Positions 8,836-25,869 are shown, counted from the stretch's first letter. The stretch: 64,000 bases of DNA from an uncultured Poribacteria bacterium (GCA_958296135.2 CATQHZ020000001.1:2144001-2208000); one strand, 5' to 3'. A program made the numbers and translations. The notes: generated by a model from the letters alone, not told the origin.

Positions 8836-9414
8836 TCAAACTCGCGGCAACTCAAAAAGTTCCGCAACTTGACAAACAAACCCTTCCACAACATCCTCCC
8901 CGGTGAGGGTATCGGCGCGCGTAAGCAGTGTGATGTCGGTTTCAGAACGATAGACGAGCACTGTTTTTGAGCCCGGTTCGATTACCCACACAAGCCGCGT
9001 TCCTGCCTCCAAATAGGCAAATGCTTTCTCAGCCACCTTCCGGAAAGTCTCCGACAGAGAAATCACCTCAACAGCAAGGTCTGGCGGAACTGGGAACGCC
9101 TTTATCAGGTCTGCAGGTAACCGTGGTGTTGAAACAAACGCGACATCCGGTTTTAGCACGCGCTCGCCCACTTGAAAGCCCGTTTCCGCGCAAACCACTT
9201 CACCCAGTTGATTCGCAATGACATAATTGCCGAGACGTATAAAGACTCGAGAACCAACTAGCCCGTGTTCCGCCGAGGGAGCCGCCATAGGTATCAATTT
9301 TCCTTTAACGTATTCGTATCCATCCACATCGCTCACAAGGAATTCATCCAACGTCATCGTGACATTTTCGGGGAGGATTCCTTCTGGCACGAACGGGTGA
9401 GTCTGTAGATTCAT
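8836..9414 (-). CDS. Uma2 (DUF820) family PD-(D/E)xK nuclease-like protein
   Basis: YEYVKGKL, PDVAFV, PPDLAVEVIS, GTRLVWVIEP; start at MNLQTHP with GGAGG RBS. Confidence 0.9.
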   Translation of the reverse strand: MNLQTHPFVPEGILPENVTMTLDEFLVSDVDGYEYVKGKLIPMAAPSAEHGLVGSRVFIRLGNYVIANQLGEVVCAETGFQVGERVLKPDVAFVSTPRLPADLIKAFPVPPDLAVEVISLSETFRKVAEKAFAYLEAGTRLVWVIEPGSKTVLVYRSETDITLLTRADTLTGEDVVEGFVCQVAELFELPRV

Positions 9415-9627
9415 TCTCTTATTCCTCCGGTGCTGTTTGTTGCATTTACCCGCTGTCTTCAATTAAAAGTATAACATATCGCAACCGAAATTGCAACAAT
9501 GCAACAAATTGATAGAAAAATATTGACATCACAGACTGAATTGGTGTATCATAAACCAATGTAGGAGAGACCTCCCGGTCTCGATTTCTCCTCGGTGTAT
9601 CATAAACCAATGAAGGAGGTAGCACCT

Positions 9628-10790: not shown

Positions 10791-11130
10791 CGCACGATAC
10801 CGTAGGGTGGGGGCCTGTCCCCCGCCATGCATGCAAAAGCCCTTTCTTTATCGCTCACCAAACGCACGCCAAAAAAAACGCACGATACCGTAGGGCGGGG
10901 GACAGGCCCCCGCTATGCATGCTAGAGCCCTTTTTTATCGCTCACCAAACGCACGCCAAAAAAAACGCACGATACCGTAGGGTGGGGGCCTGTCCCCCGC
11001 CATGCCTGTTAGCCCTTTTTCAACGCTCACCAAACGCACGACAAAAAAATCGCACGATACCGTAGGGTGGGGGCCTGTCCCCCGCCATGCCTGTTAGCCC
11101 TTTTTTTTAACGCTCACCAAACGCACGCCA
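10791..11130. repeat. Four ~86-bp tandem units, each containing a GTAG REP-like hairpin
   Basis: cgcacgataccgtaggg(t/c)gggg...ccccgc...cgctcaccaaacgcacg units start near 10791, 10879, 10966, 11051. Confidence 0.85.
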
Positions 11131-12126
11131 CAAATTTGTGGCAAGGGGAAGACTCTGAATACTTTCAATAATCCGATCCTCTCCATCATCTTCATCGCTA
11201 TTCGGCACGCGGTTGTGCTTGTCCATCCACGCGATGTTCTCTGCAACGCTTTCTGTCACAGGCGTTTGCGGGTCGAACTCAGGCAGAACCGCCGCCAACT
11301 TTGCGCCGCTGTAAATCTGCGTATGCCCGAAGTTGTCAAGCAGATGGATATACCGCTGCGTATCGATGCCGATGAGCGTATCTTGCGCTACATGCACGAA
11401 CTCTGCCGAAACACCGAGGACCGCCGCGGCCACTTCCTGCCACTCATCCCACGTGCGCGGCTGCGGGTGAACGAGGTTGTATATCTCGCCGAAGCACTCG
11501 GATTTGCCGAGCACCGCTGCAAACGCAACCCCCGCATCCCGCGATGCCAAAAATTGGAAATAGTTCGTCCCATCGCCCACAGAGATAATCGGTTTCGCTT
11601 TGCGGAGCCGGTCAATCCAGACCCCGCCGCATCCGAGCTGCCGATGTAGGGGTATCCCTGGCCCGTGCGTGTAGGACGGCTTGAAAATCGTCACGGGAAA
11701 CCCATCGCGTGCATGCGCTTCCAACAGCAGATTATCCGCCGCAATCTTGCCCAGTGCGTAATCCGAGGTGCCGTTCAACGGTGCTGTTTCCGGCAAATTT
11801 ATCCCATCAAAAGGCGGCCCGTATGTCATCACTGTTGAGCAGTGGACGAAGTGCCCGACGCGTCCCTGAAATGCCCGTATTGCGGAGGCAGTATCCTCAG
11901 CGTTGAAACTAATCATGTCGATGACAGCATCCCACTCTTCCGCGCCGACTTTGGCTTCAAAATGGACGCGCTGTCTCCTGTCTCCATAAATCACGCGCAT
12001 GTCTTCTGGCGGCACATCTACGTGCTGCCCGCGGTTAAACAGCACGACTTCATGGTTGCGCGCTTGCAACGCGGCGACAATACCGCGGCTAATGTTGCCG
12101 GTGCCGCCGATGACTAAGACTTTCAT
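11107..12126 (-). CDS. NAD-dependent epimerase/dehydratase family protein
   Basis: MKVLVIGGTGNIS, YxxxK (YALGK). Confidence 0.9.
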   Translation of the reverse strand: MKVLVIGGTGNISRGIVAALQARNHEVVLFNRGQHVDVPPEDMRVIYGDRRQRVHFEAKVGAEEWDAVIDMISFNAEDTASAIRAFQGRVGHFVHCSTVMTYGPPFDGINLPETAPLNGTSDYALGKIAADNLLLEAHARDGFPVTIFKPSYTHGPGIPLHRQLGCGGVWIDRLRKAKPIISVGDGTNYFQFLASRDAGVAFAAVLGKSECFGEIYNLVHPQPRTWDEWQEVAAAVLGVSAEFVHVAQDTLIGIDTQRYIHLLDNFGHTQIYSGAKLAAVLPEFDPQTPVTESVAENIAWMDKHNRVPNSDEDDGEDRIIESIQSLPLATNLWRAFGER

Positions 12127-13481
12127 TCGTTGTCTACCTCCTCGATTAACTTCACTTCGGAGTCCGTTAACCCATACAACGCGTAAACCAACGCGTCAAT
12201 CTTTTCCTCAAGGGCCGGGACTTCGCTGCTGTTCGGCTCGTCAAGGATTAACTGAACGTACTCCGCGAGGGCCGATTTCTGCTCCTCTGTCCGCTCCGCT
12301 ACCGGAAAACTCGGCAGTCGATATTCGTATCCCGGCTCGTAGAAATCGATCCAGTTCTTCGCACTCAGTGGTTTCTCATACGAGGATTGATATTGGGTTT
12401 GCGCATAGAAATGGAAAAGTTTGCCGTTCAAAATCGCCAGCAGCGAGAGGTCATCAGTCGGTATGTAACGACGACTCTTATTTAAGAGAAACGCCCCAGA
12501 TGCGTCATAGTAGGCCTGCATAGCAATCCCACCTCGATAGACAATTTTGGGATGCCGAAACTCAGGATACTCTGCACGCGCAGCAAGTTCCCAATAGAAT
12601 TCGCCTTGACGACTACGTGTTTTTAACTTATCACTATAGCCGTTGAGATGCTCGTGGATTGCCGGATATTCGTCCGCAAAAATATGCTCTGCTCCCGACT
12701 CGTTTCTGCCGGACCAGGGCCACTGTCTGAATTTGCCGCTTGGGATAAATATCAGATACTTCGGGGTCAGTTGCCACCTCTTTATCTGCGGCTTCCCAAT
12801 GGCACGTTTTATGAGCTCATCGCTTTTCGCATCCTCACCGATTAACTGCTCGCGTTTGGATTCGTCTATGACGAATGCCAAGTTGCATCCAGTTTCAATG
12901 TAATCACGGTTGAGCTCCAAAAGGTCTCCCAGTCGCGTTCCGGTATTATCAATCTTCGTCAACAACGCTTCAGACGGAACTTCCGCAATCGCTGGCGCGT
13001 TTCGTTTTGCAGGGAAGAAATCAGCCGGGATTTCATGGGCGGAGTCAATGTGGATGCGCGCCTGCTGCTCTCCCCACGAACGGATAGTCAACGCCGCACC
13101 TTCAAAGAAAGCAAACGCAAACGGACGAAAATGCTCATCAACACAGAGAAAACCGAAATCCACCGCGGTATAGCCTTGCCGCTGCAATCCTTCACTGACG
13201 TGAAACAGGAGCTTGGGATACCCTGCCTTCTCACGAAAGCGGATGAGGAACGGCAACCGAGTCCCGGAAGCGTCCCCAGCGCGAACGCGGAGCTCTTGGC
13301 ACTCAATGACCTGGGCGGCGACACCCCCTTCAAGCCGAAGATACGGTAACGGAAAGGGCCGTGCAATTTGCTCCAGCGTGGCACCTTCCGGAATAGGCAA
13401 CCCCAGTTTTTCGTCTAAAAACTGCATCAACGATGCCGCATCGCCGATGCCCTGAATATCGTCACGCGTAACGATACGCAT
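12123..13481 (-). CDS. Specificity cassette C4: conserved N-domain + TaqI_C-like TRD, no methyltransferase motifs
   Basis: MRIVTRDDIQGIGDAASLMQFLDEKLGLPIP start; FYWEL...PKIVY...DLSLLAILN...IDALVYALYGLT as in the TRD of the 1681-aa MTase. Confidence 0.85.
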   Translation of the reverse strand: MRIVTRDDIQGIGDAASLMQFLDEKLGLPIPEGATLEQIARPFPLPYLRLEGGVAAQVIECQELRVRAGDASGTRLPFLIRFREKAGYPKLLFHVSEGLQRQGYTAVDFGFLCVDEHFRPFAFAFFEGAALTIRSWGEQQARIHIDSAHEIPADFFPAKRNAPAIAEVPSEALLTKIDNTGTRLGDLLELNRDYIETGCNLAFVIDESKREQLIGEDAKSDELIKRAIGKPQIKRWQLTPKYLIFIPSGKFRQWPWSGRNESGAEHIFADEYPAIHEHLNGYSDKLKTRSRQGEFYWELAARAEYPEFRHPKIVYRGGIAMQAYYDASGAFLLNKSRRYIPTDDLSLLAILNGKLFHFYAQTQYQSSYEKPLSAKNWIDFYEPGYEYRLPSFPVAERTEEQKSALAEYVQLILDEPNSSEVPALEEKIDALVYALYGLTDSEVKLIEEVDNE

Positions 13482-13684
13482 TTAGCAATGTCCTCCTATC
13501 GTTTTCGGGATTCGGTGCAGCATGGGAACGCACGCTCTTTTCTTTGAAGAATAGACGCATTCGTTGAAGCCGAGGGACCGCGAGGGACAGGCCCTCGCGC
13601 TACGAGCCAAAGTACACGCTGCCCCTCTCCGAAGGGCGAGGGCCCGGCGATCGCGAATCGCCGAGGGTTCCCCTCGCCATGCTG
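13482..13684. repeat. Inter-cassette spacer repeat (near-identical to 18606-18810) with RBS and REP hairpins
   Basis: ttagcaatgtcctcctatcgttttcgggattcggtgcagcatggga...gcgagggacaggccctcgcgctac...cccctcgccatgctg. Confidence 0.9.
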
Positions 13685-15043
13685 CTACCGATGTTCTTCA
13701 ATTAATGCGCGTTCCGCCGCCGTTAGCCGATACAGCGCGTAAACCAACGCGTCGATCTCTTCCTCAAGGGCCGGGACTTCGCGACTGTCGGGTTCGTCAA
13801 GGATCGACTGAACGTACTCCGCGAGGGCCGATTTCTGCGCCTCTGTCCGCTCTGCTACCGGGAAGACTTCCATGATGCTTTTCTTGAAATCCAATCGACT
13901 CCCACTTGATGAGAGACACTCAGATCTCGCCCACCAACTAAACAGTTTGCTGTTCAAAACGGCGAGCAGCGAAAGGTCTGTTGTAGGGATGAAAAATGCC
14001 GGCGTTAAGACAAGCGCGTCCGACTCTTCATAACACGCCCGCATCGAATTGCCCCGGCTATACGGATAGATAATTTTGGGGTACTCTAGCAAAGCATAAC
14101 GCCTGCTTGAAGGGAACTCCCAATAGAATTCTCCCTGTTGCGTGCGCTCCTTCAAAGCGTCTCGGTAGCCGTTTAGATAACCACTAACCGCGGGATAAGT
14201 TATAGCAAAGATGCTCTCCGCTTCTACATCGTTAAGCGCATCAGTCCAAGGCCATCGCGTGTTTAGACTGCTTGGGATAAATATCAGATGCTTTGGCTCC
14301 GCTCTCCATTTTTTTCGCGAAGGTATGTCAACCATCGGCTTTATGATGTCCGCGCTGCTAGGATGTTCGTTTAACAACCTCTCATAAGTGGACACGTCCT
14401 CTATAACGAAGGCTTGGCGGTATCCGGTGTGAACACCACTGTAAATGTTCCCATGATGCCTCAAGAGCGTTCCCACCTCCGGCAGTTTGGCTAACAAACT
14501 CTCGCGCGTAGGACTCGGATCCGGTCGTACCGGCGGCTCAAAAACGAACTCAGGAGGAAGTTCATGTTCATAAGAGACGTGGATAGTCGTATTCTCCTGA
14601 GGCCATGAAAAAATAGTCAGCTCCGCGTTCTGCCAGTCATCCTCCGCCGAATCGTTGAAGTAGGCAAACGCGAACGGTTGGAGATGCTCATCTGTACAGA
14701 TAAACCGGAAAGGGGCAGAGCCTCCGGCATTCCGCTCAAGGGCCGGACAGATGGCGCGAAGTGCAGATTCGTAGCCCTGATTGGTGTTAAATCGCACCAA
14801 GAAGAGGATCCACGGTTCAGGATTTTCCGAAGTATCTCCAGGGAAAATCTGGAGTTTCTGGCAATCCAAAAAATGATCTGCGACAGGTCCTCTCAGCCCA
14901 AGGTCCCTTGGTCTAAACCGTGGACCTGTATCTTCAAGGGTTTCACCTTCCGGGATAGGCAACCCCAGTTTTTCACGCAAAAACTGCATCAACGATGCCG
15001 CATCGCTGATACCCTGAATATCATCACGCGTAACGATACGCAT
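13685..15043 (-). CDS. Specificity cassette C3 (N-domain + TaqI_C-like TRD)
   Basis: Same conserved termini as the other cassettes; unique TRD loops (IYSGVHTG, YWEFPSSRRY). Confidence 0.85.
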   Translation of the reverse strand: MRIVTRDDIQGISDAASLMQFLREKLGLPIPEGETLEDTGPRFRPRDLGLRGPVADHFLDCQKLQIFPGDTSENPEPWILFLVRFNTNQGYESALRAICPALERNAGGSAPFRFICTDEHLQPFAFAYFNDSAEDDWQNAELTIFSWPQENTTIHVSYEHELPPEFVFEPPVRPDPSPTRESLLAKLPEVGTLLRHHGNIYSGVHTGYRQAFVIEDVSTYERLLNEHPSSADIIKPMVDIPSRKKWRAEPKHLIFIPSSLNTRWPWTDALNDVEAESIFAITYPAVSGYLNGYRDALKERTQQGEFYWEFPSSRRYALLEYPKIIYPYSRGNSMRACYEESDALVLTPAFFIPTTDLSLLAVLNSKLFSWWARSECLSSSGSRLDFKKSIMEVFPVAERTEAQKSALAEYVQSILDEPDSREVPALEEEIDALVYALYRLTAAERALIEEHR

Positions 15044-15318
15044 TTAGCAATGTCCTCCTATCGTTTTCGGGATTCGGTGCAGCATGGGGAGGATATAAGC
15101 AACATCCATTCTGACGTTAGAGTCTACCATATCTCCCCCAAAACTGCAACCGATTTTCTTTCGATTAACAGAATGAATGCGTCTTCCGTTTGGAAACGAC
15201 ACATCGTCGGAAACTAACGTCTCTTCAGGTCTGCTAGGACCTGCATGTATAAAGAAAAACGTGTTGGCCCCTCTCAAGGTCTGCTAGGACCTAAATAGAT
15301 GTTTCCAGCGACGCTCGG
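15044..15318. repeat. Inter-cassette spacer; shares only the ~45-bp RBS block and contains two aggtctgctaggacct palindromes
   Basis: ttagcaatgtcctcctatcgttttcgggattcggtgcagcatggg then divergent sequence. Confidence 0.7.
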
Positions 15319-16824
15319 CTACCGATGTTCTTCAATTAACGCGCGTTCAGCCTCCGTTAGCCGATACAGCGCGTAAACCAACGCGTCAATCTCTTCCTCA
15401 AGGGCCGGGACTTCGCGACTGTCGGGTTCGTCAAGGATTAACTGAACGTACGCCGCAAGGGCCGCTTTCTGCGCCTCTGTCCGCTCCGCTACCGGAAAAC
15501 TCAACAGTTGAGATTTTTGTCCCGGCAGGTAGAAACTGATCCAACTCTTCGCACTCAGTGGTTTCCTAAACGAGGATTGATATCGGGCTTGCGCATAGAA
15601 ATGGAAAAGTTTGCCGTTCAAAATCGCCAGCAGCGAGAGGTCGTCAGTCGGTATGAAATAACAACTATTCTGTAAGATAAACGCCCCAGATGTGTCATAG
15701 TAGGCCTGAATAGCAATCCCACCTCGATAGACAATTTTGGGATGCCGAAACTCAGGATACTCTGCACGCGCAGCAAGTTCCCAATAGAATTCGCCTTGAC
15801 GACTACGTGTCTTTAACTTATCACTATAGCCGTTGAGATGCTCGTGGATTGCCGGATATTCGTCCGCAAAAATCTGCTCTGCTTCCGACTCGTTTCTGCC
15901 GGACCAGGGCCACTGTCTGAATTTGCCGCTTGGGATAAATATCAGATACTTCGGGGTCAGTTGCCACCTCTTTATCTGCGGCCTCCCAATGGCACGTTTT
16001 ATGAGCTCATCGCTTTTCGCATCTTCACCGATTAACTGCTCGCGTTTGGATTCGTCTATGACGAATGCCAAGTTGCATCCAGTTTCAACGTAACCACGGT
16101 TGAGCTCCCAACGGTCTCCCAGTGGCGGTCCGGTATTATCAATCTTCGCCAACAATGCATCAGACGAAGGTGAAACGACTCTCGCCAGCCCTGTCTCCTC
16201 CTGCACGGGAAGTTCCGGCACATTCAACGGAACTTCCGCATAGGAAACGACAGCGCGATCTTCAGGATCCGGCAGGTCATCCGGTCGCTCGTTGACCCCA
16301 GGCGTTACAGGTGGATCATCCGGTCCCGGAGACGGAGCGGGGAAGAAGACATCCGGTAATACATGCTCCGCACCAGTGTGAACGACCGTCTTCGCCTCTG
16401 TCCACGAAAAGACGGTTAATTCCGCGTTCTGCCAGTCACCTCCCGCCGAATCACTGAAATAGGCGAACGCGAACGGTTGATAATTCTCTCCCATACAGAT
16501 AAAACCGAAATCTGCAAGATTGCGGCCGCGCAACCTTGGTGCACCGCTCACAAGACGCAAGACTTCCGAACAGTCCTCTTCACTGCGAAATCGGATGAGG
16601 AAGATGCCGGAAGGTTCACCGGAAGCACCGCTGATTTCCTGGCAACTCAGAATCTCGCGAGCGATGTCTCCGCTGAGTCCCAGCGAATAGGGTGAAAAAT
16701 CTGCGACAATCTCTCCAAGGCCTAAACCTTCCGGAATAGGCAACCCCAGTTTTTCGTCTAAAAACTGCATCAACGATGCCGCATCGCCGATGCTTTGAAT
16801 ATCATCACGCGTAACGATACGCAT
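15319..16824 (-). CDS. Specificity cassette C2 (C1-type N-domain + C4-type TRD)
   Basis: N-half nearly identical to 17157-18605, C-half nearly identical to 12123-13481. Confidence 0.87.
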   Translation of the reverse strand: MRIVTRDDIQSIGDAASLMQFLDEKLGLPIPEGLGLGEIVADFSPYSLGLSGDIAREILSCQEISGASGEPSGIFLIRFRSEEDCSEVLRLVSGAPRLRGRNLADFGFICMGENYQPFAFAYFSDSAGGDWQNAELTVFSWTEAKTVVHTGAEHVLPDVFFPAPSPGPDDPPVTPGVNERPDDLPDPEDRAVVSYAEVPLNVPELPVQEETGLARVVSPSSDALLAKIDNTGPPLGDRWELNRGYVETGCNLAFVIDESKREQLIGEDAKSDELIKRAIGRPQIKRWQLTPKYLIFIPSGKFRQWPWSGRNESEAEQIFADEYPAIHEHLNGYSDKLKTRSRQGEFYWELAARAEYPEFRHPKIVYRGGIAIQAYYDTSGAFILQNSCYFIPTDDLSLLAILNGKLFHFYAQARYQSSFRKPLSAKSWISFYLPGQKSQLLSFPVAERTEAQKAALAAYVQLILDEPDSREVPALEEEIDALVYALYRLTEAERALIEEHR

Positions 16825-17156
16825 TTAGCAATGTTCTCCTATCGTTTTCGGGATTCGGTGCAGCATGGGAACGCACGCGCTTCTCTTTGAAGAATAGACG
16901 CATTCGTTGAAGCCGAGGGACCGCGAGGGACAAGCCCTCGCGCTACGGCCCAAAGCACACGCCGCCCCTCTCCGTAGGGCGAGGGCCGTCACGGTCACGC
17001 CTACAGCAAACGTGCGTGTGTCGCCTCGCGAAAGCACGGTCACGTCTACAGAAAATGTGCGTGTGTCGCCCCGCGTAAACACGCTACCTTACTTACTTTA
17101 ACGTTGTCCTCTCTGCCGCCTCGCTGCAGAGATGTCCACTGCCCCTCGCCATGCTG
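16825..17156. repeat. Inter-cassette spacer repeat with an extra insert containing a 45-bp imperfect direct repeat
   Basis: First ~160 bp match the other spacers; cacggtcacg(c/t)ctacag...gtgcgtgtgtcgcc at 16990 and 17035. Confidence 0.8.
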
Positions 17157-18605
17157 CTACCGATGTTCTTCAATTAACGCGCGTTCAGCCTCCGTTAGCC
17201 GATACAGCGCGTAAACCAACGCGTCGATCTCTTCCTCAAGGGCCGGGACTTCGCTGCTGTTCGGCTCGTCAAGGATCAACTGAACGTACCCCGCAAGGGC
17301 CGCTTTCTGCTCCTCTGTCCGCTCCGCTACCGGGAAGACTTCTATGTCGCTTTTCTTGAACTTCAACAGGGTTTCACCGGGGGCACGACACTCGGATTGC
17401 GCCCACCAATGAAAAAGTTTGCTGTTCAAAATCGCGAGCAGAGAGAGATCTGTCGTGGGTATGGAAAATGTGCCGAGGAAGCGAAGCGCATCCCCTTCTA
17501 CATAACACGCCCGCATTGAACTACCATCCGGATAGATAATTCTAGGGCGGTTATCAGGACTCTGGTCATCTACCGAGAGTTCCCAATAGAATTCACCTCG
17601 GTGAAATGCAGAACGGTTTTTTAATTTATCCCTATAACGGTTCAGGTGATTGCTGATTGCGGGATAGGTTTCCGCAAAAATTCGCTCCGCGGCCGCTTCA
17701 TCTGTCGTAACTGACCAGGGCCACTGTTTGTGCCGACCGTTCGGGATCCATATCAGATACGCCCGCTGCGGCCCCCATTTTTTCTTTTTGGGAACGCGAA
17801 CCAACGGCCTCATGAGTTGGGCACTGGCAGGGTCTTCCGCGATTAACTGTTCGCGTTTGAATTCCTCAATAACGAACGCGCGGTTGAGCCTAGTGACAAT
17901 GTTGCCGCTCAAAATGGTCCATTGCTGACCCAACGGTAACCCGCCCTTTTTCAGTTTGGCTAACAAACTCTCGCGAGAATACGAAACGACTTTCAGTTTG
18001 GCTAACAAACTCTCGCGAGAATACGAAACGACAGCGAGATCTTCAGGATCCGGCGGGTCATCCGGTCGCTCGTTGACCCCAGGCGTTACAGGTGGATCAT
18101 CCGGTCCCGGAGACGGAGCGGGGAAGAAGACATCCGGTAATACATGCTCCGCACTAGTGTGAACGACCGTCTTCGCCTCTGTCCACGAAAAGACGGTTAA
18201 TTCCGCGTTCTGCCAGTCACCTCCCACCGAATCACTGAAATAGGCGAACGCGAACGGTTGATAATTCTCTCCCATACAGATAAAACCGAAATCTGCAAGA
18301 TTGCGGCCGCGCAACCTTGGTGCACCGCTCACAAGACGCAAGACTTCCGAACAGTCCTCTTTACTGCGAAATCGGATGAGGAAGATGCTGGAAGGTTCAC
18401 CAGAAGCACCGCTGATTTCCTGGCAACTCATAATCTTGCGGGCGATGTCTCCGCTGAGTCCCAGCGAATAGGGTGAAAAATCTGCGACAATCTCTCCAAG
18501 GCCTAAACCTTCCGGAATAGGCAACCCCAGTTTTTCGTCTAAAAACTGCATCAACGATGCCGCATCGCCGATGCCCTGAATATCGTCACGCGTAACGATA
18601 CGCAT
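17157..18605 (-). CDS. Specificity cassette C1 (N-domain + TaqI_C-like TRD)
   Basis: Conserved termini; unique TRD; 14-aa tandem duplication VVSYSRESLLAKLK at the hinge. Confidence 0.85.
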   Translation of the reverse strand: MRIVTRDDIQGIGDAASLMQFLDEKLGLPIPEGLGLGEIVADFSPYSLGLSGDIARKIMSCQEISGASGEPSSIFLIRFRSKEDCSEVLRLVSGAPRLRGRNLADFGFICMGENYQPFAFAYFSDSVGGDWQNAELTVFSWTEAKTVVHTSAEHVLPDVFFPAPSPGPDDPPVTPGVNERPDDPPDPEDLAVVSYSRESLLAKLKVVSYSRESLLAKLKKGGLPLGQQWTILSGNIVTRLNRAFVIEEFKREQLIAEDPASAQLMRPLVRVPKKKKWGPQRAYLIWIPNGRHKQWPWSVTTDEAAAERIFAETYPAISNHLNRYRDKLKNRSAFHRGEFYWELSVDDQSPDNRPRIIYPDGSSMRACYVEGDALRFLGTFSIPTTDLSLLAILNSKLFHWWAQSECRAPGETLLKFKKSDIEVFPVAERTEEQKAALAGYVQLILDEPNSSEVPALEEEIDALVYALYRLTEAERALIEEHR

Positions 18606-18810
18606 TTAGCAATGTCCTCCTATCGTTTTCGGGATTCGGTGCAGCATGGGAACGCACGCGCTTTTCTTTGAAGAATAGACGCATTCGTTGAAGCCGAGGG
18701 ACCGCGAGGGACAGGCCCTCGCGCTACGGGCCAAAGCACACGCCGCCCCTCTCCGAAGGGCGAGGGGCCGGCGAGCGCGAATCGCCGAGGGTTCCCCCCT
18801 CGCCATGCTG
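18606..18810. repeat. Inter-cassette spacer repeat
   Basis: Near-identical to 13482-13684. Confidence 0.9.
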
Positions 18811-21800
18811 CTACCGATTTTCTTCGATTAACTCGCGCTCAGCCTCCGTTAACCCATACAACGCGTAAACCAACGCGTCGATCTCCTCCTCAAGGGCCGG
18901 GACTTCGTGGCTGTCGGGTTCGTCAAGGATTAACTGAACGTACTCTGCAAGGGCCGCTTTCTGCTCCTCTGTCCGCTCCGCTATGCGAACGTTCTGCATG
19001 TTCGCCTTCGTGAAATACAGAATGGATTTCCCGGGTGCCTTGCATTCGGTTCGCGCGTACCAACCGAAAAGTTTGCTGTTTAAAATCGCCAGCAGGGACA
19101 GATCTTCTGTCGGTATGAAGTGGATGGAACCTAAAGCAAATGCCCCTGTGGTGTCATAGCATGCCCGCAGAGAGCCGCCACTAAGCGGGTAGACAATCTT
19201 GGACGGTTGAAACGCCGGAGATTTGTCACGCCCCCCAAATTCCCAAAAGAATTCTCCGTTATGAGCAGCGTCCGGGTCCCTTAAAATGTCCCTATAGTTG
19301 CTGAGGTGTGCATGGATTGCCGGAAAGGTCTTGGCAAAAATCCGCTCTGCCTCGGCTTCATCTCTCGCCTTGGTCCAAAACCACTGTTTGTGCCGGCTGT
19401 TTGGAATGTAGATTAGTGATGCCGCTTCCGCTCTCCATTTGGTTCGACGAGGTATACGAATTAGCGACTTTAGGAGCTGAGCACTTTCAGGATCGGCATC
19501 AATCAACTCCCCACGTTTTGATGCGTCTATAACGTAAGCCCGATCGCATCCGGTTACAACCCCGCCGAAAATGTTACAATGCCGACTCAACGGTGCTCCG
19601 ACATTTTTCAACTTGGCCAACAAGGCCTCACGCGAAGTCGGCTCAACCCGATGAGGTGATGGCGGAACAGGAATAGGCTTCGGTTCCGGACCGTCAGAAC
19701 CTTCCCGAAAAAAGAGACGCGCCAAATCGTGTTCATAGGCTGTGTGGATAGAGGTGTTTTCCTCCGTCCACGAACAGATAGTCAACTCCGCGGACTGCAA
19801 GCCTTCGGATGCCGAATCGCTGAAGTAAGCAATAGCGAACGGTTGGAAATCCTCACCCGCGCAGATAAAGCGGCAATCGGCCAACTCGTAACCCTGCTGT
19901 TGCAGTCCATCACTGACCTGGCGCAGGACTCCCGGATAACCCGCTTTACTATTAAACCGGACGAGGAAAGGTTTTTGGTTTGCTGAGGTACCCCCAGGAC
20001 GAACCCTGATTTCATAGCAATCTTTAACCTGTTCTGCGACAGAATCGCCCAGGCCAAGGAAAACTAAAGGCAATGGAAGTGCAATCCGTTCAAAAACTGC
20101 ATCTTCCCGGATAGGCAACCCCAGTTTTTCGTCTAAAAATTGCATCAACGATGCCGCATCGCCGATGCCCTGAATATCGTCACGGGTAATGATACGCATA
20201 GGCATATCCTCCTTTTCTGGCGGCAATTCGCCGGGTTCGGGTAACGGTATGCCAGCATCGCAATACGTTTTCTTGATTAACGCAATCTCGGTATCCGTTA
20301 ACCCATAGACTTCGTAGACTAACTCATCGATAGCATGCTCAAGTGCAGGCACCGCATCTCCTGCAGGATCGGCGAGGATCCGCGCAACCCAGCGCGTGAG
20401 TTGTGCCCGCTGCTCCGAGGTCATCTCCGCGATTGGGAAACGTTTCATGTAGAGCGCGATAAAGCGTAAACTGCCACCCGCCCACGCATCGTTGAAGCTC
20501 TGAAACTTGTAGCGAGCATACCAATCAAACAGTGTGCTATTCAAAATCGCAAGCAAGGATAAGTCTGTCGTCGGTATGAAGTAGGCAGTGGCAACACTAA
20601 TCGTTTGCGCCGTGTCATAACTGGCGTATAGAGATTGCGCCGTTTCGGGCCAGACGATTTTCGGCTTTTCAAACTCAGCTCGATAACTGCACGAACGCAA
20701 TTCCCAATAAAATTTACCGCGAGCAGTCCGGCGAATCAGTTCCTCGCGATAGCGTTTCAGATGCTGGTAAACCGCCGGATAGCACTCCGCAAAGATTCGC
20801 TCCGCCTCTGTGTCATTTTCGGCATTCGACCAGGGCCAATCCGCGTTTGTGCTGCTTGCAATCGCTATCAGATACTCGTTTGACTCTTTCGCGTCCCACT
20901 TCCGGGTATAACGTCCCCGCAGCAGTGGCTTTATGAATGCACTGCTCTGGGGGGAATCAGCGATGAGTTGTTTGCGCGTGGAAGAATCTATCACGAACGC
21001 AGGGTCGTATCCGGTGACAAGCCCGCGGTAAATATCGCCGTTGACATACTCTTCCAACAGTGTCCCGGTATCTTGAAGTTTTTCAAGCAGCGCGAATGTC
21101 TCAGGGGCAGCCAAAATCCACGCGTCAGGAGAGAGTTGGGAAATCTGCATCGGGAACACCTGTTCTTGAAACGCCTCCCTGATGTCAAATTTCTTGGCGT
21201 TTTCTCTTAAAGTTGCCGCGGAGAAGAGCTGATCTGGGCTGGGACAACGATTTTCAGCGAGGACGATGCACGTGTCAACTGCCGCCTCAAAAACGGAGAT
21301 GCTCCCAAAATCCAAAAGGTTCTTCAGTGACATTTCTGTGGCAAGAAACTGGCGTAGGTTTTCGCCATAGGCCGCCCGGAAAAACTTATTGGTGCAGATA
21401 TAGGTCAAGATGCCATCGGGCTTCAGTAGCTCGGCTGCGCGTTTGTAGAAATAGACGCTAATATCCGCAGGCCTAAAGAAGAAGTCGCCAAAATAGGATT
21501 GCAATGCCGGTGCGAGATTGACTACCATCTCATGCCGGTAATCAACATACGGCGGATTGCCGATGACGATGTCAAACCCATCCTTCACACCGAACATCTC
21601 CTCCGCATCGAAGAAATCCGCGCTGGCGTTCCTGTCGTAGGGATTCCACTGCGCGATTTTCGTTGCTTCGTCAACGACACCGGTTCGCGCCTCCAGAGCC
21701 CATTCCGTAGACAATTCGGTCAGCGCGTTGACTAATTCGCCCCGGCATGCCTCTTCTTCGTTCATCAGCGAGAGTTTCATCTGCCGGGTGTTCGCGCTGA

Positions 21801-23856
21801 AGTAGTTCTCGCGAATCTTTGAAATTTGCTGGCGTTTCTGCTCAATCACGTCTGTCTCAAGGAGCATTTGGAAATCGGGTTTCTTGAGCCCGATGAGCGT
21901 ATCGGCGGCGACGAATCGGATCTCCAAGTTCGGCAGCGGTTGGATACCGTAGTTGTCGTCAGCGTTATCGTTCGGCACCTGCTCAATGATAAGCGAGATG
22001 AAAAAGCGCAGTTTAGCAATCGTCACGGCGATGGGTTGGATGTCTACCCCGTAGATGCTCTTTTGAATGAGGTAGAGTTTCCGTCCGTAGTTGTTATGCC
22101 GATTTTCTTCGGCGAAAGCCTTCTCAATCGCCGCAATCGCCAAGTTCCGGACGATAGCATCCGGAATCAGATATGCCTGCTGAATTTGGTACTGTTTCCA
22201 CCGTTTGTTCCGCCGGTCAAGTTTTTTGAGGATAAGCACCAATTTGTTCAGAATGCCCATCGGGAAGGCACCTGAGCCGACGGCCGGGTCGAGCAGCTTG
22301 AGCTCGTCTATCGCTTGGATGAGTTGCGTTACCTCACTTTCGCGGATGAGGTGTTCGGTCTGCGAATCCGCTTCCCCCTCTGCTTCATAAGCGAGCAAAT
22401 CGTCGCGGAGGCGTTCTTCCAGAAAGTCCCTATTTCCATCAAACGGTTCGACCTTCTGCAGGAAATAGGCGATGAGTGCCTCGTCTACCATGTAGTCAAC
22501 AATCTGGCGCGGTGTGTAGTAAGAGCCGGTGGATTTCCGCGCGCTGGATTGCGTTTCAGGGTTGTAGTCGCCGAGCAGGTTCTCAAACACGCGCCCGAGG
22601 AGTTCGGGTTCAAGCGCGACTTCCTGTTCAATCGGCGTGTTTTCCTCCACGGTAAACTTATAGCGCGAAAAGAGCGGGAAGATACCTTTTCCATCCTGAA
22701 AAAAGAGTTTGTCCGGCACGTGCAGTTTCTGCCGCTCGTTTTCGTTATCGGTGAAGCAATCGATGCGTCCGCCGCCGTCGCGCGTCGCCTCAAACGTATC
22801 AAGGCAGTCAAACAGCCCGCCGTTGACAAATGGCACCTGCTTGAGTTTTTCGAGAAATGCATCGGGTTCGTGCAACAGATCGGCGTAGCGATATTTGCTT
22901 GCGTCTCGATGGTTTCGGTTATCCGCAGTGCTGAAGGCGCGTTCGGTTATCGGCGTATTCAGCGTCGCGAAGAAAAGGTTTTGCAGGATGGCCTTGTAGT
23001 ATGTGTCATCAGGGGACGCTTCAACAAAGAGCTCGACAGGGATCAGGCCTTTCTCCTTCAGAAACCAGATGAAGAGCAGTCGGGTAATCAAGCGGATGAC
23101 CTGGGGTTCAGTCTCGCCATCTGGGAAACGGCATTCCGATTTTGCCCACTCATACCACTCAAACAGTTCTCGATAAAACTTGCGGTTGAGGGTTTCGGTG
23201 TTGAGCACACCTTCCCACGCGTTGTGTAGCGTATCAAAATTGCGAACGTCCTCGGTCTCAATGAGAGCCTCCAGATGCAATTCGGCAAGAATATCCAGAT
23301 GCGCGCGGTGCGGGTTGCGCAACTTGATGTCCTTGATGAGCGTCACTTTTTCCAGCACCTGTTTCGTCGCGTCGCGTTTGTGCCATCGGCGGTTGATAAT
23401 CGCCAGCGTCAGGACATCGCCGTATCGGAACATCACCAGAATCGGCACTACGAAGCGGCCGTTGACAAAGCGGGTGATATTGGCAAGCTGTGTGCGCGTA
23501 TAGTTCTCCCCACTGAGTTGCATAGCGACGAAGATATAGGAGAGCCTCAGATTTTCGTCAAACTTCGCGGTTTCAAACAGCATTTCCTGCTGATTGATCT
23601 CGCTGTCGGTAATCTGGAAGATGAGGTGGAATTTCTCCCAATCGTCAACACAGAGTTTATCGGCGGCATCGGCAGGTGCTTGCGTGCGGCGCGCCGCCGC
23701 GGCCTCCCGGAGGGTGCCGAACAGCTGCTCATCTAAACCCTTGTTCCCGGTTCTATCGCTGTGGTAACCGAGGGCGTTGAGGAAGCGCGTGGCAGCCTCG
23801 CGCAGCGGCGTTTCCGCGAAGGAGCTTATACAGTTTTGGATATCGGTTCTGTTCAT
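18811..23856 (-). CDS. Eco57I/TaqI-like (Type IIG-style, gamma-class) N6-adenine DNA methyltransferase with TRD1 plus a fused C-terminal cassette module (TRD2)
   Basis: PELLGRVFENLL, TGSYYTPR, motif I LLDPAVGSGAF, IYGVDI, motif IV GFDIVIGNPPYV, TaqI_C-like FYWELRSCSY..FEKPKIVW; a second module starts at Met1220 (MRIITRDDIQGIGDAASLMQF). Confidence 0.92.
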   Translation of the reverse strand: MNRTDIQNCISSFAETPLREAATRFLNALGYHSDRTGNKGLDEQLFGTLREAAAARRTQAPADAADKLCVDDWEKFHLIFQITDSEINQQEMLFETAKFDENLRLSYIFVAMQLSGENYTRTQLANITRFVNGRFVVPILVMFRYGDVLTLAIINRRWHKRDATKQVLEKVTLIKDIKLRNPHRAHLDILAELHLEALIETEDVRNFDTLHNAWEGVLNTETLNRKFYRELFEWYEWAKSECRFPDGETEPQVIRLITRLLFIWFLKEKGLIPVELFVEASPDDTYYKAILQNLFFATLNTPITERAFSTADNRNHRDASKYRYADLLHEPDAFLEKLKQVPFVNGGLFDCLDTFEATRDGGGRIDCFTDNENERQKLHVPDKLFFQDGKGIFPLFSRYKFTVEENTPIEQEVALEPELLGRVFENLLGDYNPETQSSARKSTGSYYTPRQIVDYMVDEALIAYFLQKVEPFDGNRDFLEERLRDDLLAYEAEGEADSQTEHLIRESEVTQLIQAIDELKLLDPAVGSGAFPMGILNKLVLILKKLDRRNKRWKQYQIQQAYLIPDAIVRNLAIAAIEKAFAEENRHNNYGRKLYLIQKSIYGVDIQPIAVTIAKLRFFISLIIEQVPNDNADDNYGIQPLPNLEIRFVAADTLIGLKKPDFQMLLETDVIEQKRQQISKIRENYFSANTRQMKLSLMNEEEACRGELVNALTELSTEWALEARTGVVDEATKIAQWNPYDRNASADFFDAEEMFGVKDGFDIVIGNPPYVDYRHEMVVNLAPALQSYFGDFFFRPADISVYFYKRAAELLKPDGILTYICTNKFFRAAYGENLRQFLATEMSLKNLLDFGSISVFEAAVDTCIVLAENRCPSPDQLFSAATLRENAKKFDIREAFQEQVFPMQISQLSPDAWILAAPETFALLEKLQDTGTLLEEYVNGDIYRGLVTGYDPAFVIDSSTRKQLIADSPQSSAFIKPLLRGRYTRKWDAKESNEYLIAIASSTNADWPWSNAENDTEAERIFAECYPAVYQHLKRYREELIRRTARGKFYWELRSCSYRAEFEKPKIVWPETAQSLYASYDTAQTISVATAYFIPTTDLSLLAILNSTLFDWYARYKFQSFNDAWAGGSLRFIALYMKRFPIAEMTSEQRAQLTRWVARILADPAGDAVPALEHAIDELVYEVYGLTDTEIALIKKTYCDAGIPLPEPGELPPEKEDMPMRIITRDDIQGIGDAASLMQFLDEKLGLPIREDAVFERIALPLPLVFLGLGDSVAEQVKDCYEIRVRPGGTSANQKPFLVRFNSKAGYPGVLRQVSDGLQQQGYELADCRFICAGEDFQPFAIAYFSDSASEGLQSAELTICSWTEENTSIHTAYEHDLARLFFREGSDGPEPKPIPVPPSPHRVEPTSREALLAKLKNVGAPLSRHCNIFGGVVTGCDRAYVIDASKRGELIDADPESAQLLKSLIRIPRRTKWRAEAASLIYIPNSRHKQWFWTKARDEAEAERIFAKTFPAIHAHLSNYRDILRDPDAAHNGEFFWEFGGRDKSPAFQPSKIVYPLSGGSLRACYDTTGAFALGSIHFIPTEDLSLLAILNSKLFGWYARTECKAPGKSILYFTKANMQNVRIAERTEEQKAALAEYVQLILDEPDSHEVPALEEEIDALVYALYGLTEAERELIEENR

Positions 23857-24152
23857 AAATCGTCAGAGCTCTCTTTGCGTTTGCGCCGCGAGAGGGACAG
23901 CCCTCCGAAGCCGCTAACTACGGCCATATAAAACCCGACGTCATACCACCAGCCTGTATTAAGCGGTTCATAGACGCGGATATCCGAGTTGAAGATGCCC
24001 CAAATCAGCGATACCGGGGCGAGCCAGCCGTGCCAGATGCCCCAGAAAAAGCCGGCAGGCTTTTCTACGGTGTGCTTCCCATCGCCGGGGAGGCACCCGC
24101 TCTGCAGCATCAGTACCGTTAACAGCAGGATACAAAGCAACCGTCTTGCCAT
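23853..24152 (-). CDS. Small conserved membrane (lipo)protein
   Basis: Lipobox-like QSGC, PAGFFWGIWHGW...NTGWWYDVGF; stop overlaps the MTase ATG (ATGA). Confidence 0.75.
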   Translation of the reverse strand: MARRLLCILLLTVLMLQSGCLPGDGKHTVEKPAGFFWGIWHGWLAPVSLIWGIFNSDIRVYEPLNTGWWYDVGFYMAVVSGFGGLSLSRRKRKESSDDL

Positions 24153-24155
24153 GAC

Positions 24156-24545
24156 TTATGCCTCTTGCGATTCTTCCTGTTCAAGCCGCTTGAACCATGA
24201 GCTGATCTGGCGAGGCGTCGCATTGGGGACCGCCGCTTGCATCTTTTTGAGAATCTCCCGCTTGGACATCCCCGGTGTCTTCGCTAGGAAGACGGTTCGA
24301 GCTTTCGCATACAAGACCGGATCGACTTTTCTGCGGCCGACACGGGTGCGGAAGTTCCGCGGTCCTTCGTAGTTCAGCGCGTCAAGGGCAGCGTTCCACT
24401 CGTCGGTTTTGATCCAACGGTATAAGGTGCGTGAGGAAACGCCGATGGCGAGGGCGATCGCATCGGCGTTCCTATTACCGCCAGCGAAGATGTCCACCGC
24501 GGTCTTCATTTTTTTCTTTCTTACATCGCTTGGTAGTGCAGGCAT
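24156..24545 (-). CDS. Helix-turn-helix DNA-binding protein
   Basis: ADAIALAIGVSSRTLYRW HTH, possible second HTH near ATPRQISSWF. Confidence 0.7.
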   Translation of the reverse strand: MPALPSDVRKKKMKTAVDIFAGGNRNADAIALAIGVSSRTLYRWIKTDEWNAALDALNYEGPRNFRTRVGRRKVDPVLYAKARTVFLAKTPGMSKREILKKMQAAVPNATPRQISSWFKRLEQEESQEA

Positions 24546-24774: not shown

Positions 24775-25869
24775 TTAGTCTATTATCGTCACAACACGTT
24801 TATTTGTCAAGAAAAAATCGGTTTGCGGATGCTCAGCATCAACAATGGCGCGTGCCAATGCCCAATCTAACCGTCGGCGATATTGGCCATCGCGGCGTAA
24901 CCCCTTGAACGCTGTCAGAAAAACGTCGTGCGTTCTCTCGCGGATGGTGGTGAGACGTGCATTGAGATTCTCTACATCTACCTGCCACGGGACGCGGAGT
25001 TTCGTGATGGAACGTCCCTGATAACGGACAGGATACCCCGCTAACTCCGCCGGCGGACAAAAACAGATGGAGGCGCAAACCGTATTGTCTACGGCGACGA
25101 GCCCCACATTTCCCGTCGGTTCATTGAACACAATCTCGCGATTGCGCGAAGGCATCGGCAGGTGCGTGCGGAGCTCCGAGAGGGTTCCGAGGAACTGATT
25201 GTTGCGCCATATTCTCACTGAAGGGACGCGCGTGGAAAGCGTATTTACTGTCGGTGCAGGCCCGAACAGCGCGAGCCCAACTGGATGTTCGGTATCCGCA
25301 AACATAAACGTTTCCGGCGGCCGCGCTTTTTCCACATCCCCCGGGAGGCGCGCTTTGGCAGCGCGCGCCTGTATGTCCACCGGTTGCATTTGTGGAACTA
25401 ATGAGACAAAATCGTGCAACCGGTGCAGGAACAGCCTACTCCGAATGAACGCCTCTGGGATAATCGCCGCTACCCACTTACAATTTGCCAAGCACTTCTC
25501 CAACGCGTATTTGTAAAGATCATCGTGTTGGATATCGCGTGGAAACGGCAGTCCCCGGCGCGTCGCGGAGTTGCGCGCCAGCCACGGCGGGTTTGTAATG
25601 CACACCTCAAACCCTCTCGGAAAATCAGCGAGTGTATCGCGTCGCCGGACCTCGGCGGCGGCGGGCTCAATGTCAAAAAGGGCCCACTCTCGGCACTGCA
25701 ACCGCGCTTCACTTAGCAGCCGTGGAATGCTGTTATCACCGGCGAAAGGTTCCAACGCGTGCTGCTGGTTTAAGTTGAGTGCCGCTGCCCACGCGCGGAA
25801 GGGTTTCAACTGAAACGGATTTCCGCGGGTGTAGTAGCGGCCCGTTGCACGTTTTTCCTCTATATGCAT
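24775..25869 (-). CDS. Putative solitary amino-DNA methyltransferase
   Basis: GRYYT, LEPFAGDNS (motif I-like), FDIEP, ITNPPW (motif IV), DDLYKYAL; gamma motif order. Confidence 0.7.
   Translation of the reverse strand: MHIEEKRATGRYYTRGNPFQLKPFRAWAAALNLNQQHALEPFAGDNSIPRLLSEARLQCREWALFDIEPAAAEVRRRDTLADFPRGFEVCITNPPWLARNSATRRGLPFPRDIQHDDLYKYALEKCLANCKWVAAIIPEAFIRSRLFLHRLHDFVSLVPQMQPVDIQARAAKARLPGDVEKARPPETFMFADTEHPVGLALFGPAPTVNTLSTRVPSVRIWRNNQFLGTLSELRTHLPMPSRNREIVFNEPTGNVGLVAVDNTVCASICFCPPAELAGYPVRYQGRSITKLRVPWQVDVENLNARLTTIRERTHDVFLTAFKGLRRDGQYRRRLDWALARAIVDAEHPQTDFFLTNKRVVTIID

Follow-up and report, generated by a model that had tools for sequence, protein, structure and literature searches.

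Restriction-modification systems and systems of the bacteriophage exclusion (BREX) type change what they recognize on DNA by shuffling target recognition domains (TRDs). So far, most descriptions of such shuffling concern Type I HsdS genes and inversion-driven switching of the PglX/Eco57I type. In the same enzyme superfamily, a locus of an uncultured Poribacteria bacterium is laid out differently. Within the 64,000-nucleotide (nt) stretch that was analysed (GCA_958296135.2 CATQHZ020000001.1:2144001-2208000, hereafter the window), five paralogous modules lie in tandem on the minus strand as complete direct repeats, one of them (F) fused to a large enzyme gene and four (C1 to C4) being free-standing open reading frames (ORFs). 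The question that this locus raises is whether the modules exchange their domains, by which route, and whether they are expressed subunits or silent copies. Our reading, to which we give a probability of roughly 0.6, is that the tandem modules are expressed DNA-recognition subunits with arms homogenised by conversion, and that module C2 arose by duplication and a conversion tract joined in the hinge, after which its TRD diverged. Three things can be read directly at the locus: the parents lie beside the hybrid, the flanks evolve in concert, and the fused slot has been replaced between sister species. The ORFs and their coordinates, listed below together with the parts of C2, are as an earlier note on this DNA gave them.

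18811-23856, minus strand: large enzyme ORF including module F, 1681 amino acids (aa)
20200-23856, minus strand: enzyme core, consisting of an N-terminal region, a helical region, a gamma-class N6-adenine methylase (GNPPY), the enzyme's own TRD (TRD0) and a 23-aa proline-rich linker
18811-20199, minus strand: module F, with N-domain, hinge and TRD, 462 residues, fused in frame to the enzyme
17157-18605, minus strand: module C1, 482 aa, free-standing, donor type for the C2 N-domain
15319-16824, minus strand: module C2, 501 aa, hybrid
16244-16985, minus strand: C1-like block of C2, comprising the N-domain and 160 nt of upstream intergenic leader
16167-16243, minus strand: private long hinge of C2 (AEVPLNVPELPVQEETGLARVVSPS), 77 nt
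15353-16166, minus strand: C4-like block of C2 (TRD), with amino acid changes concentrated in three loop regions
13685-15043, minus strand: module C3, 452 aa, free-standing, with its own N-domain and TRD lineage
12123-13481, minus strand: module C4, 452 aa, resident orthologue of the single module gene in other genera

The C2 module is a hybrid of the C1 and C4 types

All five modules follow a common plan of an N-domain of ~160 residues, a proline-rich hinge and a TRD of ~280 residues. The earlier note had described C2 as the N-domain of C1 joined to the TRD of C4, and the alignments bear this out. At the protein level, C2 tracks C1 up to ...AVVSY and C4 from ...LLAKIDNTG on. At the nucleotide level, C2 16244-16985 matches C1 18025-18766 in an ungapped BLAST block of 742 nt with 18 mismatches (97.6% identity), and C2 15353-16166 matches C4 12163-12976 in an ungapped block of 814 nt with 56 mismatches (93.1%). 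In 90-nt windows, C1 and C2 are 94-100% identical over columns 1-180, where C2 is 40-77% identical to C3 or C4 beyond the first window, and the identity between C2 and C4 is 95-99% at columns 241-361 and 83-93% at columns 376-451. The breakpoint scan that had been suggested gave the same partition of 450 informative sites: to the left of the best breakpoint, C2 sides with C1 at 180 of 182 sites, and to the right of it with C4 at 236 of 268 (maximum chi-square 329, a value that no permutation out of 10,000 reached). The exceptions on the right number 32, and about 20 of these are the last sites, where the 3' end of C2 turns C1-like again. At the junction, GTC GTT TCC TAT is followed by GCG GAA GTT CCG (VVSY and AEVP, respectively). 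The 14-bp hinge block reported as common to C2 and C4 is indeed found in both, as the reverse complement of TGCGGAAGTTCCGT. The private 77-nt hinge of C2 has its homologue in the long hinge that C4-type modules carry in other organisms, and C4 itself has lost 63 nt at this position.

Phylogenies of 58 family members, built for the N-domain and the TRD separately, are incongruent, as had been predicted. The N-domain tree groups C1 with C2 (support 100/99), and the TRD tree groups C2 with C4 (95/77), this pair being nested in a clade with support of 100/98. Both groupings had been fixed by the earlier note ahead of tree building. In approximately unbiased (AU) tests, forcing C1 and C2 together on the TRD cost 204.6 log-likelihood units (p-AU 3.8e-55), and forcing C2 and C4 together on the N-domain cost 164.4 (p-AU 2.3e-54). 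C2 is a genuine and recent hybrid of the C1 and C4 types. C3 is 81% identical to the proteins P0032/P0033 in both domains.

Two further resemblances pointed out in the earlier note are weaker and have another explanation. The N-domain of C4 is closer to that of the fused module (48% versus 43-45% identity), which reflects an old shared split and not a recent exchange. The fine patchwork between C1 and C3 is accounted for by their sister TRD clades (96/85) together with a longer homogenised 3' arm, in which 13670-13888 matches 17142-17360 at 92%.

Origin of the hybrid

The two halves of C2 have diverged alike from their parents, with a synonymous divergence (dS) of 0.031 between the N-domains of C1 and C2 and of 0.033-0.043 between the TRDs of C2 and C4. 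This is about 1/20 of the dS to sister-species orthologues (0.45-0.81), and by this comparison the formation of C2 appears to be recent. C2 might instead be an assembly chimera in which reads of C1 and C4 were mis-joined. The reads were available as short Logan unitigs from four runs of one sample in one study; both blocks are long near-repeats, at which such unitigs stop, and no read bridging the hinge was seen. However, C2 differs from C1 at 18 of 742 and from C4 at 56 of 814 positions, and its private 77-nt hinge encodes a protein sequence that matches the hinge of related modules elsewhere. Moreover, four variant letters in the unitigs are exactly the letters of the paralogue, which means that the reads contain each block in both its copies, and the shared segments have 1.6-1.9 times the unitig depth of the unique flanks. 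Depth dips over 15.8-16.6 kb differ among runs of the one sample and are not interpretable. We regard a chimera as extremely improbable. The route proposed in the earlier note, a one-step unequal crossover between C1 and C4, does not survive the geometry of the array. Tandem direct repeats with blocks of 89-477 nt at 92-100% identity would suit such an exchange, and so would the change in copy number between species described below. Yet a single crossover would either leave F-[C1N.C4T] with everything between deleted, and thus lose C3 and both parents, or place the reciprocal hybrid C4N.C1T in a duplication; neither product is the observed order F-C1-[C1N.C4T]-C3-C4 with both parents kept, so at least two events are needed. 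The parents C1 and C4 have no sequence in common at the hinge junction, thus one end of the exchange was illegitimate. The far 3' end of C2 is C1/C3-like again, as for a patch. One-step crossover is therefore very unlikely.

A route of at least two steps fits better. The array would first have undergone an internal duplication. A conversion tract would then have run from a homologous arm to a non-homologous end, joined illegitimately but in frame inside the disordered hinge, where such a join would be tolerated.

Homogenised arms and module exchange at the fused slot

The variable cores of the modules are flanked by a 5' arm of ~90 nt, a 3' arm of ~175-220 nt and a locus-specific leader. Among the modules, dS is 0-0.39 over the first 30 codons and 0.18-0.66 over the last 61 codons, and exceeds 1.2 in the cores; the identity among the five modules is 89-100% in the 5' arm and 84-95% in the 3' arm. 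The 5' arm of C4 is 100% identical to that of C1 and 81% identical to that of its own sister-species orthologue, whereas the core of its N-domain is, as protein, 81% identical to this orthologue and 39% to C1. Within the genome, the arms and the 84-nt leader are confined to this locus. Taken together, these comparisons show that arms and leader are kept nearly identical within the genome by gene conversion.

The sister species (G002) has the same fusion (1684 aa), with an enzyme core that is 74% identical. In that species, though, the module fused to the enzyme is orthologous to the free C1 (80-84% identity in the N-domain, 68% in the TRD), and there is one free module, a C4 orthologue, against four free modules here. 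The fused modules of both species have in common the linker, an internal AGGAGGA and slot-specific first codons (ATCATTACC), and diverge from about nt 90, inside the 5' arm, the rest being C1-type in the sister species and F-type here. Because the fused modules part inside the 5' arm, the arms served as crossover sites for whole-module replacement. The comparison of the two species shows that the homologous arms allow gain, loss and replacement of whole modules, including at the enzyme-fused slot, and that the number of free modules has gone from one to four or the reverse. An identical reading frame is kept across all 5' arms.

The junctions between the modules, and the repeats found in them and in the 5' arms, are the following.

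18606-18810, minus strand: F-C1 junction, with GC-rich hairpins resembling repetitive extragenic palindromic (REP) elements (distal ~120 nt) and the locus-specific 84-nt leader with the ribosome-binding site (RBS) TAGGAGGA
16825-17156, 15044-15318 (divergent) and 13482-13684: equivalent junctions
20142-20168, 18548-18574, 16767-16793, 14986-15012 and 13424-13450, minus strand: 5'-arm hairpins
18690-18810, 16870-16985 and 13565-13684, and also near 11016-11134: REP-like spacer elements

The 5'-arm hairpin is present in all five modules, 30-57 nt after the ATG and inside the homogenised arm, and consists of a 12-bp stem, a 3-nt loop and a U-run. It is terminator-like, with an RNA fold z-score of -2.6, and its U-run is not kept in the free module of the sister species; the hairpin may act as an attenuator or as a recombination hot spot, or its presence may be coincidental. 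The GC-rich REP-like hairpin elements stand directly after the module stop codons and make up the distal ~120 nt of the spacers. They have 749 BLAST matches elsewhere in the genome and a unitig depth in the thousands, and the apparent "joints" in the unitigs all begin in these hairpins and lead to other places in the genome. The spacer between C1 and C2 additionally contains a dispersed element of ~165 nt (16986-17156) that resembles a miniature inverted-repeat transposable element (MITE). It has 366 matches elsewhere, 22 of them of at least 160 nt, the best six being 95-97% identical, and it includes a 45-nt tandem pair (16990-17079).

The locus has neither the inverted repeats nor the nearby recombinase of an inverting shufflon. 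There are 0 pairs of inverted repeats of at least 25 nt in 11000-24500. For serine recombinases (PF00239), 3 matches were found in the genome, all more than 1.3 Mb from the window. For tyrosine recombinases (PF00589), no match at E<=0.001 was found in the genome, which is 94.7% complete, whereas 14 of 14 control genomes have one, so that proteins of the XerC/D type are either very divergent here or missing from the assembly.

Architecture of the enzyme and of the modules

The methylase domain of the large enzyme was recognized by Pfam (Eco57I, 1.3e-33, aa 600-856) and has the GNPPY motif in translation. It is followed in the same chain by TRD0 (aa ~922-1196, nt 20269-21093; TaqI_C, 3.3e-18). 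The PADLOC model REase_MTase_IIG matches the enzyme with 6.7e-112, and the Type IIG models stop at about aa 1196. The 1681-aa gene has both a methylase with NPPY and a TRD in the same chain, as in Type IIG genes, and its product appears to be an Eco57I-family, Type IIG-like enzyme with putative DNA cleavage. A structure search with residues 1-210 found no solved relative.

An AlphaFold2 model of C4 (mean predicted local distance difference test, pLDDT, of 83) has two folded domains with a linker of pLDDT <50 between them. Between the module TRD and TRD0 of the enzyme, the identity is 43% (BLASTP E 3e-58), and with the TRD of the C4 model Foldseek matched M.BseCI (E 2.4e-11), CamA, MmeI, PglX and M.TaqI. 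Both searches place the module TRDs in the TaqI_C/MmeI type, with Pfam TaqI_C (PF12950) scores below threshold (18.7, 21.9 and 25.9 bits against a cut-off of 26.5, and none for C4). They are not of the HsdS type: Pfam gives TaqI_C only, and the model has one TRD behind an alpha/beta N-domain. At the boundary of hinge and TRD, C1 carries a perfect 42-nt tandem duplication (17949-18032) that repeats 14 residues (VVSYSRESLLAKLK) and is very recent, because both copies are 100% identical.

The N-domain is matched by no Pfam, NCBIfam or PADLOC model. It gave an hhalign probability of 0.05% against the N-terminal 210 aa of the enzyme, and BLASTP found nothing between it and the whole enzyme core. 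Its matches in the protein atlas score at most 0.80 and serve as leads only. The N-domain as a nuclease was considered and rejected, there being no invariant set of acidic and lysine residues among 23 sequences and D8 being the sole invariant charged residue. A profile search with the N-domain returned 531 clusters at E<=1e-3. Of the 150 clusters listed, 148 have a match that starts no later than residue 64, and 49 are of at least 900 aa; all 8 long members that were tested have an Eco57I methylase domain. Some N-domain proteins additionally carry Schlafen AlbA_2 or Type ISP C-terminal domains. The N-domain (13008-13481 in C4 and its equivalents) is a widespread unannotated domain that could be proposed as a new domain family. 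Two homologues outside the window, P0009 and P0013 (758-785 aa), are another product of TRD mobility: behind a single N-domain they carry two complete TRDs, both of which have C-terminal helices of their own.

Among the relatives are proteins of ~1050 aa that consist of the N-domain and then a region homologous to enzyme residues 186-1203, and because of these the modules look like methylase-less derivatives of single-chain enzymes, without the helical and methylase parts. Three predictions of a C4 homodimer gave interface scores (ipSAE, a score from predicted aligned errors) of 0.45, 0.45 and 0.46, against 0.00 for the best of 3 controls. The runs have at least 81% of contacts in common, with a partner pLDDT of at least 79, and all confident contacts lie within residues 1-160. 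The prediction supports homodimerisation of the N-domain. Between N-domain types, the predicted interface residues (29-56%) and the remaining residues (40-54%) show no clear difference in how far they vary. If it is true, dimerisation through the N-domain would explain how single-chain enzymes of the Eco57I family pair, and also of what use a TRD without a methylase is. A tentative extension of our reading, somewhat improbable as a whole, is that the modules are trans-acting specificity subunits, methylase-less "half enzymes" whose N-domains would pair among themselves and with that of the enzyme-fused module, so that one methylase/restriction core would have combinatorial targets, and whose repertoire would be renewed without an invertase, by module exchange through the arms and by hinge joins that place a new TRD behind an old pairing domain.

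Reassortment across the family and divergence of the C2 TRD

The general claim of the earlier note, that N-domains and TRDs reassort independently with the break in the hinge, agrees with the separate histories of the two domains in C2 and across the family. Eight well-supported N-domain types can be placed with 7 changes on the N-domain tree, whereas the TRD tree requires 21 and shuffled labels 31-39, thus the domains are partly linked but have been re-paired many times.

The changes between the C2 and C4 TRDs cluster at C4 residues 182-195, 332-339 and 362-390. Over columns 376-450 of the alignment (73 codons), there are 24 non-synonymous and 2 synonymous differences, a modest excess over a synonymous share of 0.24 (binomial p 0.033). 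This gives modest support to the suggestion that, once C2 had formed, selection favoured another DNA target for its TRD while the pairing domain stayed as it was. Mutagenesis like that of a diversity-generating retroelement was rejected, as the 56 substitutions from C4 to C2 start from A (22), G (16), C (10) and T (8).

A search for other such arrays in genome contigs found a single locus, and the exact 5'-arm pattern had 0 matches in metagenome contigs. A profile scan yielded 16 loci, one with a full module (L039) and 14 with a TRD only. At locus L038, an enzyme-core homologue (54% identity) has no N-domain in the next 574 nt of its contig.

Expressed subunits or silent copies

The modules had been called cassettes in the earlier note. 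In the sense of silent copies this term probably does not apply, since every module is a complete ORF with its own RBS and the orthologues are ordinary single genes elsewhere. In all four free modules, TAGGAGGA (TAGGAGAA in C2) lies 9 nt before the ATG, and in module F an internal AAGGAGGA lies 7 nt ahead of its ATG. The stop codon of C4 overlaps the ATG of the epimerase gene downstream (ATGA). The ratio of non-synonymous to synonymous divergence (dN/dS) between the old paralogues is 0.16-0.42, and each module is under purifying selection. The free modules are probably not silent, and we infer that they are expressed DNA-recognition subunits. The array lies in a slot bracketed by two genes.

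11107-12126, minus strand: NAD-dependent epimerase gene, conserved downstream neighbour that marks the end of the array
24775-25869, minus strand: upstream gene of 364 aa, conserved neighbour, encoding a small gamma-class methylase-like protein

Four genomes from two other genera have one module between the same two core genes, adjoining the 364-aa gene, and lack a large enzyme gene at the locus. These single modules have Shine-Dalgarno-like sites. Because a single module sits between the same two conserved genes in other genera, the module is an accessory gene in a fixed slot, to which, from this comparison, a large enzyme gene was added in this genus and fused to a module.

Two other accounts of the array have to be weighed against this evidence. 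The free modules could be a store of silent cassettes, in which case the fused module alone would matter, C1 to C4 would be donors for the fused slot, as pilS is for pilE, and hybrids would be by-products of the conversion traffic. This would agree with homogenised arms that are confined to this locus, with different module types in the fused slot of two species and a switch inside the 5' arm, and with one frame kept across all 5' arms. Of the hallmarks of a pilE/pilS-type system, the locus has the conserved flanks shared with the expression site but not the donors without start signals. In known systems, silent copies are mostly truncated or without a start, whereas every module here has its own start codon and a strong RBS, C4 is translationally coupled to the next gene, and in the four genomes of other genera the module is the only copy, with no enzyme gene at the locus to receive it; a silent store is rather unlikely. 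Alternatively, the array may be neutral debris, a by-product of duplication beside a mobile restriction-modification gene, with free modules that have no role and a hybrid that is accidental. The N-domain has no known fold, the spacers are invaded by REP-like and MITE-like repeats, and the copy number differs between the two species, all of which would suit debris. However, five frames have stayed intact over 452-501 codons despite a dS of >1.2 between paralogues and with the low dN/dS given above, orthologues are kept across species and genera, and the hinge junction of C2 is in frame, which together make neutral debris quite unlikely.

Expressed, recombining subunits remain the preferred reading, although several points weigh against it or parts of it. 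Promoter-like and terminator-like sites were not above shuffled expectation (8 versus 9.1 and 16 versus 16.5, respectively). The short unitigs break at repeats, thus no rearrangement within the population was seen, and the physical linkage of the two halves of C2 rests on the assembly. The excess in the C2 TRD does not differ significantly from the first part of this TRD, which has 12 non-synonymous and 3 synonymous differences (Fisher p 0.34). The role of the N-domain is drawn from the dimer model and from the position of the domain in full-length enzymes. The dimer score is a model's confidence and not a measurement, and since the run used our own alignment, its calibration, in which 20 of 30 solved homo-pairs and 1 of 23 solved single chains reached the mark, holds roughly. 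No conserved, catalytic-looking residue set was found among the 23 N-domain sequences, and the best solved look-alike, TSEN15/34 (E 0.025, TM ~0.3), was not accepted. For the enzyme, the first ~210 aa lie outside the Type IIG nuclease models and have a weak DUF4391 match only (E 0.018).

Comparison with known systems

Phase-variable Type I hsdS loci, such as pneumococcal SpnD39III, have several specificity genes with inverted repeats and usually an invertase (PMC7394358, PMC7672463). They resemble the present locus in that alternative TRD-bearing genes lie beside one enzyme, repeats flank the variable TRDs, and recombination makes new combinations; their TRDs are paired and of the HsdS type, and they include silent copies that are partial. 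At the present locus, by contrast, the copies are direct, complete and separately translatable, each with a single TaqI/MmeI-type TRD, and there is neither an inverted repeat of at least 25 nt nor a nearby recombinase. Programmed inversions also swap the variable region of PglX, of Eco57I-domain proteins, of Cj0031-like Type IIG enzymes and of DISARM methylases (PMC9881135). The enzyme superfamily is the same, and the specificity region varies while the ends are constant; the inversions are driven by a recombinase and involve partial inverted copies. The present locus differs from them in having whole modules in direct repeat with an extra N-domain, and what is seen here points to gene conversion and module replacement over evolutionary time and not to switching in a population. 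In the domain movement (DoMo) of Helicobacter pylori, the TRDs of Type I and Type IIG S genes move (PMC3077401). Here too, TRD sequences move between positions or genes via flanking repeats, and the number of TRDs rises or falls. DoMo was described for HsdS-like subunits of two TRDs compared between strains, whereas at the present locus a non-TRD domain is what reassorts with the TRD, one of the junctions is non-homologous and lies in a linker, and parents and hybrid stand in one array. From the sequences, the locus therefore appears to differ from known TRD shuffling in its direct-repeat layout and in that no recombinase was found nearby.

Half-size HsdS subunits dimerise into a specificity unit with two TRDs, pairing through conserved helical regions. 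The modules resemble them in having one TRD per chain, and the proposed pairing of two chains would likewise join two TRDs; they differ in that pairing is predicted through an unrelated alpha/beta N-domain and in that a methylase partner is hypothetical. To our knowledge, the TRD of single-chain Type IIG/IIL enzymes and TaqI-class methylases is always in the chain of the methylase. With these enzymes (MmeI 5hr4, M.BseCI 7qw6, CamA 7lni and PglX/BrxX 8c45) the modules share the TRD fold, but here the TRD also occurs without a methylase, behind an N-domain. The literature, taken without supplements, yielded no description of direct-repeat arrays of modules made of an N-domain and a TRD. The locus is a simple test bed for whether the specificity of the enzyme core depends on the module.

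Neighbouring genes

The 364-aa upstream protein has the gamma-class methylase motifs GRYYT, EPFAGDNS and TNPPW and a weak Eco57I Pfam match; a structure search found no solved relative. All 36 genomes of the family have its gene, as against none of the 24 that were searched from three other families, and the N-domain was detected in 19 of the same 36 genomes. Because of these counts, the 364-aa gene is considered a core gene that, together with the epimerase gene, brackets the variable slot, and it was rejected as a dedicated partner of the modules. The protein may be a core orphan methylase.

Directly upstream of the enzyme gene, a 99-aa ORF (23853-24152, minus strand) has a lipoprotein-like signal and hydrophobic stretches and gave no family match; its stop codon overlaps the ATG of the enzyme gene (ATGA). 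Three genes downstream of the array lies a gene for a putative restriction endonuclease of the Uma2 family (8836-9462, minus strand), and the sister species has an ORF of matching size (207 aa) at the same relative position.

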